Below, one piece after another: positions 3,001 to 6,000 of a DNA stretch of 64,000 nt. Source of the DNA: Escherichia coli (lineage in GTDB: Bacteria > Pseudomonadota > Gammaproteobacteria > Enterobacterales > Enterobacteriaceae). The position numbers are program-made. Location: the NCBI RefSeq assembly GCF_045037415.1, contig NZ_CP173438.1; one strand, written 5' to 3'. Positions within the stretch are counted from its first letter, which is position 1, and each line of letters starts with the position of its first letter.

Positions 3001-6000
3001 CGAAACCCAGCACATTACTCCAGGCATCCAGTATCAACCGATCCAGTTCGGGGCCGTCGAAATACTCCTGTCTGACGCACAGCACCACGTGGTATTCCGG
3101 CTTTTCCGGATGACGGGTCAGGAGCCAGCAAAGGTCGCGTCCGGGTTTCGCATTCATCAGCGCACTGACGGTTTCGATAAAATCCATACCAAACCAGGTC
3201 TGTCTGCTGTTGAAGGCGTTGTCATGTTCCCACGGCAGACGAAGCAGGATCCGCCGTATCCGTGAGCCGGACTGCTCACGCAGCGCACGCTCAAGGACGC
3301 CGATGACTTTGTTCTGATAAGATGGCCAGAAGGGTGCCAGGCTATAGTCGAAATAAGGAATAGCATTCATAAGATATGTTCCGTTATGCGCAGCCCACAA
3401 TGCGTCCTGCCCGTGAATGAGCTGACGTGTTATGGCTTGCGGATGAGATTGATGGAATAAGTGAAGAACCGGAGCAGAACGGGAAGACAAGGAACAAAAC
3501 ACCGGATGCAGGTTCAGGATGAATGATCTCCGTTGACTTCAGTTCACATCATTAATCAAGGCGGTAAGTTTTTACCGACGGAGTGTTTCCAGGAGCGAAG
3601 GCTCAGGCCTTAAGCTTCAGAAGTGAGGCTTACGAGGACGCCCTGCAGCAGGACGTTCAGGAACTTCATTGCAGCCGTAAGCACACAGCCCGTCTTTTTG
3701 CTCTTCTTTCGCCAGATAATGCAGGGCACCGCGAATATTATCGATGCTTTCAGGATCGTTGTGGCGCACAGGAATGTTGATGTTGTATGCATAATGCGGC
3801 TGATATGTACAGCGGTGCGCCGAACCACAGTTATACGTAATTGCCTGCCAGCATTCCGCTATCCGCTCCGCAAAGGGATATATTTTTTTAACCCTCTGAC
3901 GATCGATCCAGAAAACGACATGCGCATGAAAACCATGATCAGCCGTCCATTCAATCACCCAGAAGAAACCAACGATATTTTCAAATTGTTCCACCTGCTC
4001 CAGCAGCATACGCAACTGCAATTCAAGCCAGCGATGATCAGGTTGTAAGAAATCGGGCGTATCTTTCCTGTAGAAGAAATCCATCCGTAAGGCCCGCAGG
4101 CAGGAATAGCGTGCCATCATTTGATTGATGTGATTGTCAAGTAAAGCGGTAAAAAACCAGTTTGGTGTGTAAGATTTAGGCATGTTGATGACTCCTGAAA
4201 GTTAATGATGTTTTAAGCTCTGTGAGCGAATTAATGCTTTCGCTCATAATCAGATCTAAAACGGTAATAACTTACAGATGGTATTTATCAGGCATGCTGT
4301 AGCAGAATGGATACGACGGGTTATTAACGATACGCAGCATTATGCAGAAAGAAATGGATTATCTGATGGTATTAGCTAAAGAGATGAGATAAACGAGGAG
4401 CGAATAAAATACAGAATCAATAAACATCACGAAATACTGCAAAACACGCGATAAAAACCCACTACCAGGAGATTAAGAAACATATTACGACCAATAACAT
4501 CATAAACTACAAACTTGCTCTCAGTGAGTCTGAAAAAACGTGTACAAGGCCAACGCAATAAACTTATACGCCCTCATCCAATCTGTTCTTAAGGACATGA
4601 ACGTTAACCGCACACATTACCAGAGTAAAAAATACCACTGGCATGATTTTTACCCTGCATCTTAAACAATACAACCCGAAACAAACATAATCAGGTATCT
4701 CTCCTGTCAATTTCATTGTTTATCCAGCTCTGTTAATCGTTACAGAATCATGGATACCTTATCAAAGAGTAAACATCCAGTTAATCAGTAATGACAAAAG
4801 AATTGATGTTCATCAGAATAGTTAAAACACTTCAGATAAACAATTATCGTTAAGTAAATACAGTTCATGATGGATAAGATTAAAATCAATTACTGTTTCA
4901 GTGAAGACTGATAACAGATGAATATCATCAGTAGAATGGTAGAGGATAACTTATCTGAGTATCGTATGAATTACAGTAGTTATGCCTAATGAAGAAGGAA
5001 GTGGATATTATGATAATGGTGACAATGAAGATTAGACAAAGAAGAGTGTGAGTAAAGACAGAGTGAATATAATTATAGTAATAAGCCTAAATTAAAATTA
5101 TCCATGTTTAATGGGTAAAAATGAACAACTCTCCGTTCTGAATATATCCCTGACAGAACTGTTTCCTTACAAAAATTAGATAAATTCTTTCTTATTCAAA
5201 CCTGAACAACATCTTTTGTCAGCGACAGAAAATATGAACTATCTTTAAGCCACATCATTCTCCCGTAAAAAGGGAGTCGATGTGGCAAAATCATTAGTGC
5301 CCCTTAGCCAGATATTGTTCCATTTCTTCTTCCGGCACCATTCCACCTCCCGTCGCCCACACCAGATGAGTGGCATTACGCAGTTGTTCTGCGCTGAAAC
5401 CGTGCATCTGTTGGTAACTTACTGATGCGCACACGCGCTGAGGCCCGGCCATACCCGCCAGTGCCGATGGTTCAAGACGAATACCTTCTTCCTGCGCCAG
5501 CCAGCCAAGCATGTCATACATGGTTTGATCGCTAAGGGTATAGAAGCCATCCAGCAGACGCTCCATCGCCCGCCCGACAAAGCCCGATGCGCGACCAACT
5601 GCAAGGCCATCCGCTGCGGTAAGGTTGTCGATACCAATATCCTGAACAGAAATCTGATCGTGTAATCCTGTATGGACGCCTAACAACATACAAGGGGAGT
5701 GCGTTGGTTCGGCAAAAAAGCAGTGAACATGATCGCCAAACGCCAGTTTAAGTCCGAATGCGACGCCACCAGGACCACCACCAACACCACACGGCAGATA
5801 GACAAACAGAGGGTTATCAGCATCGACGATACGACCTTGCTGGGCAAATTGCGCTTTAAGACGCTGGCCAGCGACGGAATACCCAAGGAACAACGTGCGG
5901 GAATTCTCGTCATCAATAAAGAAACAGTTCGGGTCAGACTGCGCTGCTTTACGTCCTTCCTCGACGGCAACACCATAATCTTGCTCATATTCCACGACCG

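Follow-up and report, generated by a model that had tools for sequence, protein, structure and literature searches.

A conserved distal motif in the non-coding region upstream of a small HUH gene in Escherichia coli genomic islands

We analyzed 64,000 nucleotides (nt) of Escherichia coli DNA (contig NZ_CP173438.1 of assembly GCF_045037415.1), referred to here as the window, in which a tract at 4184–5293 extends from the start codon of a 188-aa open reading frame (ORF) to the stop codon of dsdA. The ORF encodes a small HUH protein of the Gp2 and YagK/YfjJ type, and the tract is the non-coding region upstream of this gene. Both of its ends are conserved among relatives, and the distal end holds a motif that recurs upstream of diverged homologues of the HUH gene and may be a promoter. 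The features of the locus are as follows.

3617–4183, minus strand: gene for the 188-aa Gp2/YagK-YfjJ-like small HUH protein (ORF, translation, sub-threshold Pfam matches, RefSeq name, invariant HxH and YxxK)
4184–4330, minus strand: highly conserved proximal 5' region of the HUH gene (diversity, Shine-Dalgarno sequence, hairpin)
4331–4984, no strand: weakly constrained AT-rich middle (allele mosaic, indels, and insertion sequence (IS) insertions in relatives)
4985–5051, minus strand: hyper-variable stretch, purine-rich on the plus strand and C/U-rich, G-poor and unstructured on the minus strand, hence rut-like (composition, folding, alignment)
5052–5125, minus strand: conserved motif of ~60–75 nt, CATTAAACATGGATAATTTTAATTTAGGCTTATTAC-TATAAT-TATATT-CACTC
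5126–5260, no strand: rest of the island-backbone intergenic region, cut off here; full-length islands run ~400 nt more to a yfjI-like gene
5250–5287, minus strand: stem-loop directly 3' of dsdA, spanning the junction of dsd and backbone, GCCACAUCGACUCCC-UUUUUAC-GGGAGAAUGAUGUGGC
5294–6622, minus strand: dsdA (D-serine ammonia-lyase, 442 aa), from the island copy of dsdCXA (ORF; Pfam PALP, E = 4e-47; RefSeq)

The tract and its setting in the island

The tract contains 430 A, 302 T, 189 G and 189 C, a G+C content of 34.1% compared to 47.4% for the whole window; sliding G+C is 0.29–0.37 over 4201–5250 and 0.44–0.55 on either flank (~50%). No ORF of at least 60 aa occurs within 4184–5293 on either strand, the longest listed being 50 aa. 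Across the six frames, stop-free runs reach at most 52 codons, versus 75 ± 16 in mononucleotide shuffles, 3.9% of which have a longest run as short as this; the lack of ORFs is mostly explained by base composition and is weakly more extreme than chance. An earlier note on this DNA had described a 1.1-kb AT-rich, ORF-free tract between a YfjJ-like gene on the left and dsdA on the right, and the coordinates, content and gene names all hold. Its statement that the plus strand is purine-rich is true to a modest degree, since purines make up 55.8% and the bias is concentrated at ~4950–5070. The tract is a real feature and a largely ordinary one.

Searches inside the tract were largely negative. Direct, inverted and tandem repeats and iterons do not rise above Markov simulations, and the k-mer ATGGATA (four seen, 0.23 expected) was set aside as chance, being within the simulation maximum. 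A simple scan found no terminator-like site on either strand, and five promoter-like sites against 6.0 ± 2.1 expected. Rfam 15 covariance models gave no match at E <= 1 on either strand of window 3000–6500. RNA folding in the body of the tract reaches z = -2.6 at 4430 and about -2.0 at 4830–4870, all on the minus strand, and none of these folds markedly beats shuffles. Open frames of 65–111 codons recur in relatives on the minus strand at tract positions ~770–1130. We rejected a coding interpretation for them: all three frames are open and low in complexity, and neither frame nor start is kept across the 66 variants described below, so that these frames are an artefact of a pyrimidine-rich strand. 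A search for protein remnants, by tblastn of ORFs from 15 related loci against the window and the tracts of loci L002 and L006 (L numbers are our handles for the loci compared), returned noise (E mostly 0.01–0.1).

Among 5426 complete E. coli genomes, 1568 (~29%) contain the tract; in 494 of these, 80% or more of it is found together at a single place. Best-match identity per record is at least 99% in 265 records, 90%–95% in 422 and 80%–90% in 858. Almost nothing is annotated beneath the tract among the matches listed, the exceptions being an inserted IS1 in one complete genome and a 41-aa hypothetical protein, and the RefSeq rows for these matches include no pseudogene. Plasmid matches are island fragments, and a search for phage relatives gave no match.

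From 4184 to ~5260 the window matches, at 80%–92% identity, a non-coding island region of ~1.5 kb that in L002, L006 and L009 extends from a Gp2-type gene to a yfjI-family gene; in L002 and L006 a second, larger Gp2-family gene comes after the latter. BLAST homology to L002 reaches 5203, and local alignments to seven full-length variants (L002, L060, L092, L103, L028, L070 and L009) end at 5247–5262. Backbone homology thereby ceases ~30 nt past the dsdA stop codon, and the dsd genes with ~25 kb beyond them occupy the place held in full-length islands by the last ~400 nt of the intergenic region and yfjI. On the dsd side, the alignment to K-12 covers window 5293–5700 only, with nothing in common past the dsdA stop codon, and comparison with the K-12 dsdA-emrY spacer revealed no homology to it. 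The 3' flank of dsdA seen here is common to only 270 of the 5426 genomes, most matching only from 5301–5307, inside dsdA. Since islands share the tract and dsd homology ends at dsdA, the tract belongs to the island and not to dsd. On these alignments we take its origin in the island backbone and its placement at the junction to be near-certain. The boundary between island backbone and dsd locus proposed in the earlier note is thus borne out, and the possibility it had raised that this is a generic spacer conserved in all dsd loci is contradicted by the 270 genomes and by K-12.

A locus of 100% identity in NZ_CP048647 provides the wider context. It reads cdiA, cdiB, several hypothetical genes, a helix-turn-helix (HTH) regulator, a hypothetical gene, the Gp2-type gene, the gap and dsdA-dsdX-dsdC; beyond dsdC come an integrase-core pseudogene, DMT transporters and a choline-utilisation (cut) microcompartment operon, in an island of the leuX region. 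In the window, the frameshifted 'integrase core domain' pseudogene just past dsdC (~9244–9578, identical RefSeq locus) lacks its N-terminus. An intact IS481-family transposase abuts the conserved motif in other islands, and the pseudogene may be a relic of the insertion of the dsd block. The window and NZ_CP048647 are otherwise near-identical, except that the window lacks, at ~23940–23950, a group II intron (ltrA) found within an IS3-family element of NZ_CP048647 (L122, 37780–40042), and that the two are not collinear past ~32 kb.

The 188-aa protein matches REP_ORF2-G2P at 26.1 bits and YagK_YfjJ_C at 20.5 bits in Pfam, both just under the curated cut-offs, and RefSeq names it 'inovirus-type Gp2 protein' (in the identical locus) or 'YagK/YfjJ domain-containing protein.' Across 23 homologues, the most distant at 39% identity, the motifs H86-x-H88 and Y156-x-x-K159 do not vary, nor do E78 and T80, in support of the earlier note's description of the neighbor as HUH-type. 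A sequence search of solved structures with this protein gave no match. The gene stands at the head of a conserved backbone string on one strand, followed by genes for a 190-aa protein, an AlpA-family HTH protein and a 182-aa protein, and these four genes probably form an operon. For islands of Pseudomonas, a preprint counts AlpA and an inovirus Gp2-like protein among the likely core functions, without giving a mechanism (doi 10.1101/2024.08.29.610337). In the literature that we found, YfjJ and YagK proteins appear in gene lists only, and nothing in the literature or annotation that we found describes the tract. An analogy to the Pseudomonas AlpA antiterminator was dropped: that protein is larger and Q-like and acts with a GGGACG site between -35 and -10, and the protein here is a short Phage_AlpA HTH. 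The SpLE1 island of enterohaemorrhagic E. coli Sakai (module protein 'ECs1377 family') has parts of the module and lacks the HUH gene and the tract, and its transcript literature was of no help.

Several further observations concern the module. In four related islands (L002 2957–3436, L004 3116–3460, L005 2983–3497 and L006 2927–3435), a gene for a ProQ/FinO-family RNA chaperone, often frameshifted, belongs to the same backbone module and is encoded on the other strand; the window lacks it and has only ~270 nt at that place. The ~65 nt at 3513–3575, between the 190-aa and Gp2-188 genes, are 75%–76% identical to the start region of the larger yfjJ-like Gp2 gene of L002, L005 and L006, and may be a regulatory element common to both Gp2-type genes. 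A larger Gp2-family gene (243 aa) also occurs in the window at 30299–31030 on the minus strand, preceded by ~1.6 kb of AT-rich DNA at 31031–32650 (31%–44% G+C, A>T skew up to +0.56, no ORF of at least 90 aa), which lacks the conserved motif and has no similarity to the tract at 4184–5293.

Constraint along the tract and the distal motif

Variation was assessed in 66 unique variants of the first kilobase of the tract, taken from one metagenome pattern scan and from annotated loci, and nucleotide diversity was computed over 56 unique sequences. Diversity is 0.014–0.036 in the proximal part (4184–4333), about 0.08 over 4334–4433 and 0.13–0.25 in the middle (4434–4983). Codon positions 1, 2 and 3 of the Gp2 gene give 0.025, 0.022 and 0.071, and the third positions of the neighboring 190-aa gene give 0.183. 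By this measure the proximal 150 nt are strongly constrained, below even the third positions of the Gp2 gene, and the middle 650 nt are about neutral.

The proximal region contains the Shine-Dalgarno sequence AGGAG of the HUH gene (plus-strand CTCCT at 4192–4196) and, at 4223–4246 on the minus strand, an 8-bp hairpin, UGAGCGAA-AGCAUUAA-UUCGCUCA. The proximal RNA fold has z = -3.45, and scan windows starting at 4150 and 4190 have z of about -2.3 to -3.0. Hairpin variants are mostly C-to-U changes in the 3' arm, which keep G-U pairs on the minus-strand RNA, and a few variants break a pair; the same changes would be A-C mismatches if read on the plus strand. No double-sided compensatory changes occur in the region examined (the proximal 140 nt). 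These one-sided changes, without compensatory covariation, make a modest case for the hairpin as a structure of the mRNA strand. The start context of the HUH gene (CAACATGCCTAAAT, 4174–4187, minus strand) is nearly repeated 110 nt upstream (CAGCATGCCTGATAAAT, 4270–4293, minus strand), where it opens a 7-codon frame, MPDKYHL, without a Shine-Dalgarno sequence; this could be chance or a relic of duplication.

In the middle, the variants are mosaics in which blocks of ~100% identity alternate with blocks of 70%–85%. Some carry internal deletions (tract positions ~130–495 or 735–880), and an IS2-type element and another IS have inserted at tract position ~256 in L118 and L121. Alignment identity across 4985–5051 is 0.3–0.6. 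In relatives this purine-rich stretch holds a tandem repeat of 9 nt, GGTGGAGAA, whose copy number varies, with ~6–8 copies in some (L007, L025); it is absent from the window, where the equivalent place is ~4995–5005.

The motif beyond this stretch stands out from surroundings that align poorly. It has a -10-like TATAAT at 5077–5072 and a putative start, 'CA,' at ~5065–5064 on the minus strand. Its 27-nt core is invariant in 38 unique sequences of the tract family, and the hexamer reads TATAAT or TATTAT in all 38. TATAAT is also found in the paralogue clade L013–L018 and in five of the seven further homologue loci with the motif; A2 and T6 are kept in all lineages but L127 (TTTAAT), and a doubtful match in L019 has TGTTAT. 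The motif thus resembles a sigma-70 -10 element in its nearness to TATAAT, its A2 and T6 and its conserved position. No -35 hexamer is present 16–18 bp upstream of it, where the best hexamers, read directly, match TTGACA at 1–3 of 6 positions. A conserved CACTC(C) follows the motif, and then a pyrimidine-rich stretch with C>G, seen by direct reading in the paralogue leaders as well.

The motif occurs once in the 64-kb window (nhmmer E = 3e-13, and pattern search) and once per locus. It is upstream of and co-oriented with the gene in L013–L018, whose Gp2-type protein is ~50% identical, and no other non-coding sequence there matches the tract. We then have eight test loci outside the model building, drawn from protein homologues of 39%–59% identity. 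Seven of these have the motif upstream on the sense strand (E = 4e-13 to 2e-3), beside genes for proteins 43%–59% identical. Six genera are represented, namely Klebsiella, Enterobacter, Citrobacter, Serratia, Xenorhabdus and Escherichia (E. coli), as well as a metagenome contig, and the non-coding DNA around the motif in these loci does not match the tract. The matches, all on the sense strand, are as follows.

L131: E = 4e-13
L126 (Klebsiella): E = 1e-9
L130 (Enterobacter): E = 7e-7
L124 (E. coli): E = 1e-5
L132: E = 1e-4
L127 (Serratia): E = 6e-4
L128 (Xenorhabdus; an IS removed the left half): E = 2e-3

L133 has no motif, the match in L019 (Budvicia, from a genome scan) is at chance level (E = 0.66), and the motif was not found at the K-12 yfjJ and yagK loci. 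The distance from motif to start codon is 100–230 nt in most loci, ~0.9 kb in the family of the window and ~1.1 kb in Serratia. A 320-bp fragment of the tract that includes the motif, 72% identical to the window, is found in several conjugative plasmids (L010 / L008 5001–5323, IncF/IncK plasmids), between a truncating ISEc8 and the siderophore receptor gene ireA, with no adjacent Gp2 gene.

The motif also marks a limit of homology. Most of the 66 variants lose homology at positions 969–1000 of the full-length reference, just past the motif. When they are aligned on the motif, ~25–30 nt to the right of the core are common, after which at least five flank classes begin within ~10–15 nt of one another:

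yfjI-type (the class of the window)
IS481-family element (annotated in L004)
IS21-family element
H-NS-like and acyltransferase genes (L005)
sugar-kinase and pseudouridine cargo (L007)

The split lies about -55 to -60 from the putative start at ~5064–5065, which fits a promoter whose upstream edge is kept and beyond which DNA is freely replaceable. It does not require site-specific recombination, as several junctions are plain IS insertions. Because the motif is kept when unrelated DNA replaces yfjI, it goes with the Gp2 side. The place is a point of island remodelling where cargo and IS elements abut, the cargo here including a second copy of dsdCXA.

A proposed promoter and leader, and competing interpretations

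With slightly better than even confidence, we interpret the tract as an activator-dependent or silenced promoter followed by an untranslated leader of ~880 nt for the HUH gene; for the promoter and leader part taken alone, we put the chances as about evenly balanced. The distal motif would be the promoter or operator of the module, with the -10 at 5077–5072 and a start near 5065. Having a -10 and no -35, such a promoter should be weak or activator-dependent. Transcription from it would yield the ~880-nt leader, and the first 80 nt of that leader, C-rich, G-poor and unstructured, together with its AT-rich remainder, could serve as a substrate for silencing by H-NS and Rho. In enteric bacteria, H-NS and Rho-dependent premature termination typically act on AT-rich leaders of horizontally acquired DNA, and with a leader prone to both, the HUH/AlpA module would stay silent unless induced. 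The proximal hairpin beside the ribosome-binding site would add control at the mRNA level, over translation or stability.

The composition of the tract is consistent with this scheme. The minus strand at 4991–5070 is 30% C and 4% G (C/G = 8), folding just downstream of the motif amounts to about -6 kcal/mol per 120 nt, and the untranslated, C-rich, G-poor and unstructured ~80 nt typical of rut sites are found at 4991–5070. A simple scan detects no intrinsic terminator between the motif and the HUH gene. As in H-NS targets, A+T is well above that of the host and the DNA is horizontally acquired, in a leuX-region island with cdiBA, dsdCXA and the cut operon. The exact high-affinity H-NS motif TCGATAAATT is absent from the tract, which has GATAAAT cores at 4283 and 5179, and so is the RfaH ops element GGCGGTAG. 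The silenced promoter suggested in the earlier note is our favored interpretation, placed at a site that the note had not named, the TATAAT motif at 5052–5125 on the minus strand, ~880 nt upstream of the HUH gene; the suggestion is weakened by the missing -35 and by a silencing deduced from composition.

Several points weigh against this interpretation. The simple promoter scan passed over the motif, which has no -35. Strings like TATAAT abound in AT-rich DNA and are also found in HUH replicon origins. The start site is placed from sequence alone, and the parts given to Rho and H-NS come from composition only. The HUH gene could own a weak proximal promoter, which would reduce most of the tract to plain spacer. 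The 0.9-kb distance may reflect inserted junk, given the 100–230 nt of most homologues, and since the middle 650 nt are about neutral and partly deletable, most of the leader would be without sequence-specific function.

Transcription of dsdA runs towards the tract, and the end of that operon bears on the leader. The minus strand of 5200–5300 folds at -30.4 kcal/mol (z = -4.14), and none of 200 shuffles is as stable. The stem-loop at 5250–5287 has no U-run and was not called by the simple terminator scan; it is predicted to be terminator-like or a 3'-end stabiliser. As dsdXA is co-oriented with the HUH module, D-serine-induced transcription of the operon could pass this hairpin, which has no U-tract, and read on into the leader. 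In this strain there may hence be a regulatory link, with D-serine-induced dsdXA transcription pointing into the HUH/AlpA module.

The main competing interpretations concern the motif as a DNA target of the HUH protein and the tract as spacer, and we consider each of them unlikely. An active HUH nuclease needs a cognate site, usually beside its gene, and the motif could be that site, as a rolling-circle or mobilisation nick site or origin, or as an autoregulatory operator, with the AT-rich tract easily melted. The kept catalytic signature (H86-x-H88, Y156-x-x-K159, E78 and T80) makes an active nuclease with a nearby site plausible; no other non-coding element is conserved throughout the family, motif and gene always share an orientation, and the motif marks a sharp break of homology between island variants. 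In one paralogue clade a G+C stem of 7–8 bp (GGGGAGTG / CACTCCC) encloses the AT-rich core, like Rep stem-loop origins. That stem, however, is limited to L013–L018 and L131, with a partial form in L126, and the window family, L124, L130 and L132 lack it; the single-stranded DNA fold is no better than shuffles (z = -0.2 to -0.5), and neither iterons nor other above-chance repeats occur in the tract, so that both the conserved hairpin and the iterons of an HUH Rep origin are lacking. Several flank classes are ordinary IS insertions and not precise single-nucleotide events, and a motif present once per island cannot define the two ends of a transposable unit. The origin-like site of the earlier note therefore keeps the HUH motifs and the stem of one clade in its favor and has the missing iterons and the unconserved hairpin against it, and is weakly supported. 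A more specific proposal, to which we give somewhat less credence still, is that the ~60-nt motif (AATTTAATTTAGGTTnATTAnTATAATTAnnnCACTCC) is the cognate site, a nick site or origin or an operator coupling nicking to expression, of a clade of small HUH proteins that appears catalytically intact by its motifs and seems to be core to integrase/AlpA-type islands across Enterobacterales. If so, excision would be followed by a rolling-circle step in islands that are held to be non-replicative, and the AT-rich tract would be the melting region. The roles of HUH target and promoter are not mutually exclusive.

The tract might instead be mostly functionless acquired AT-rich spacer beyond a short proximal promoter and 5' untranslated region, passively coated by H-NS, with the motif belonging elsewhere, such as to a yfjI-type 3' region. 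Much of what we observe agrees with this: near-neutral diversity over 4434–4983, the internal deletions, variable 9-nt repeat and IS insertions of relatives, an absence of above-chance repeats, structures (in the tract body) and Rfam families, and a lack of ORFs roughly as base composition predicts. It does not explain why the motif stays when yfjI is replaced by unrelated DNA, its conservation beside 43%–59%-identical homologues with differing upstream genes, or proximal 150 nt that vary less than the third codon positions of the gene. Spacer is a fitting description of the middle 650 nt and not of the two conserved ends. Far less probable is that the tract encodes a small RNA antisense to the leader of the HUH mRNA, or a small protein such as a hydrophobic toxin-like peptide. 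A ProQ/FinO-family chaperone gene in the same module of related islands, and a 5' hairpin by the ribosome-binding site of the kind targeted by FinP-type antisense RNAs, speak for such an RNA, and an open frame starting MDNFNLGLLLLL at the motif in some variants speaks for a protein. Yet the chaperone gene is absent from the window, the hairpin variants fit the mRNA strand and not the antisense strand, and the MDNFNL frame is closed after 10 codons in the window and has lost or never had its ATG in other variants. The small RNA contemplated in the earlier note finds no support, there being no Rfam match, no terminator-like site on either strand, no markedly stable fold in the body and no compensatory changes in the proximal part.

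For annotation, we would describe the tract as the regulatory and leader region of an island-backbone module, rather than as part of dsd or as a candidate small RNA gene. Small Gp2/YagK-like HUH proteins accompany AlpA-family regulators in very many genomic islands, and the distal motif offers a concrete handle on them and is the element worth following up.

Comparison with known systems

The spacer between dsdA and emrY in K-12 is like the tract in lying directly 3' of dsdA. It differs in being a 107-bp gap to a convergent emrY, without homology to the tract. A likeness to the traJ leader with FinP and FinO of F-like plasmids is seen in the hairpin beside the ribosome-binding site of a mobile-element regulator gene and in the ProQ/FinO-family gene of related islands, but no antisense promoter or terminator was found in the tract, the hairpin variation fits the sense strand only, and the FinO-like gene is missing from the window.

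The plus-strand origin of the Ff phages (f1/M13), recognized by gpII, and HUH stem-loop origins resemble the locus in the Gp2-type neighbor with HxH and YxxK and in an AT-rich motif near the gene, which one clade presents in the loop of a G+C stem. They differ from it in that the stem here is not kept across lineages, binding repeats are missing, no demonstrated alignment links the motif to known nick sites, and the neighboring protein has only 188 aa and falls below the Pfam cut-offs.

Of the known systems, the tract seems most like the H-NS- and Rho-silenced long leaders of horizontally acquired operons. It differs from these in having no ops element and no exact H-NS motif, and in the neutrality of most of the leader. 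It is like them in its 34% G+C within an island (~50% in the genome), in its long untranslated stretch, and in the unstructured segment with C>G at the 5' end of the putative transcript.

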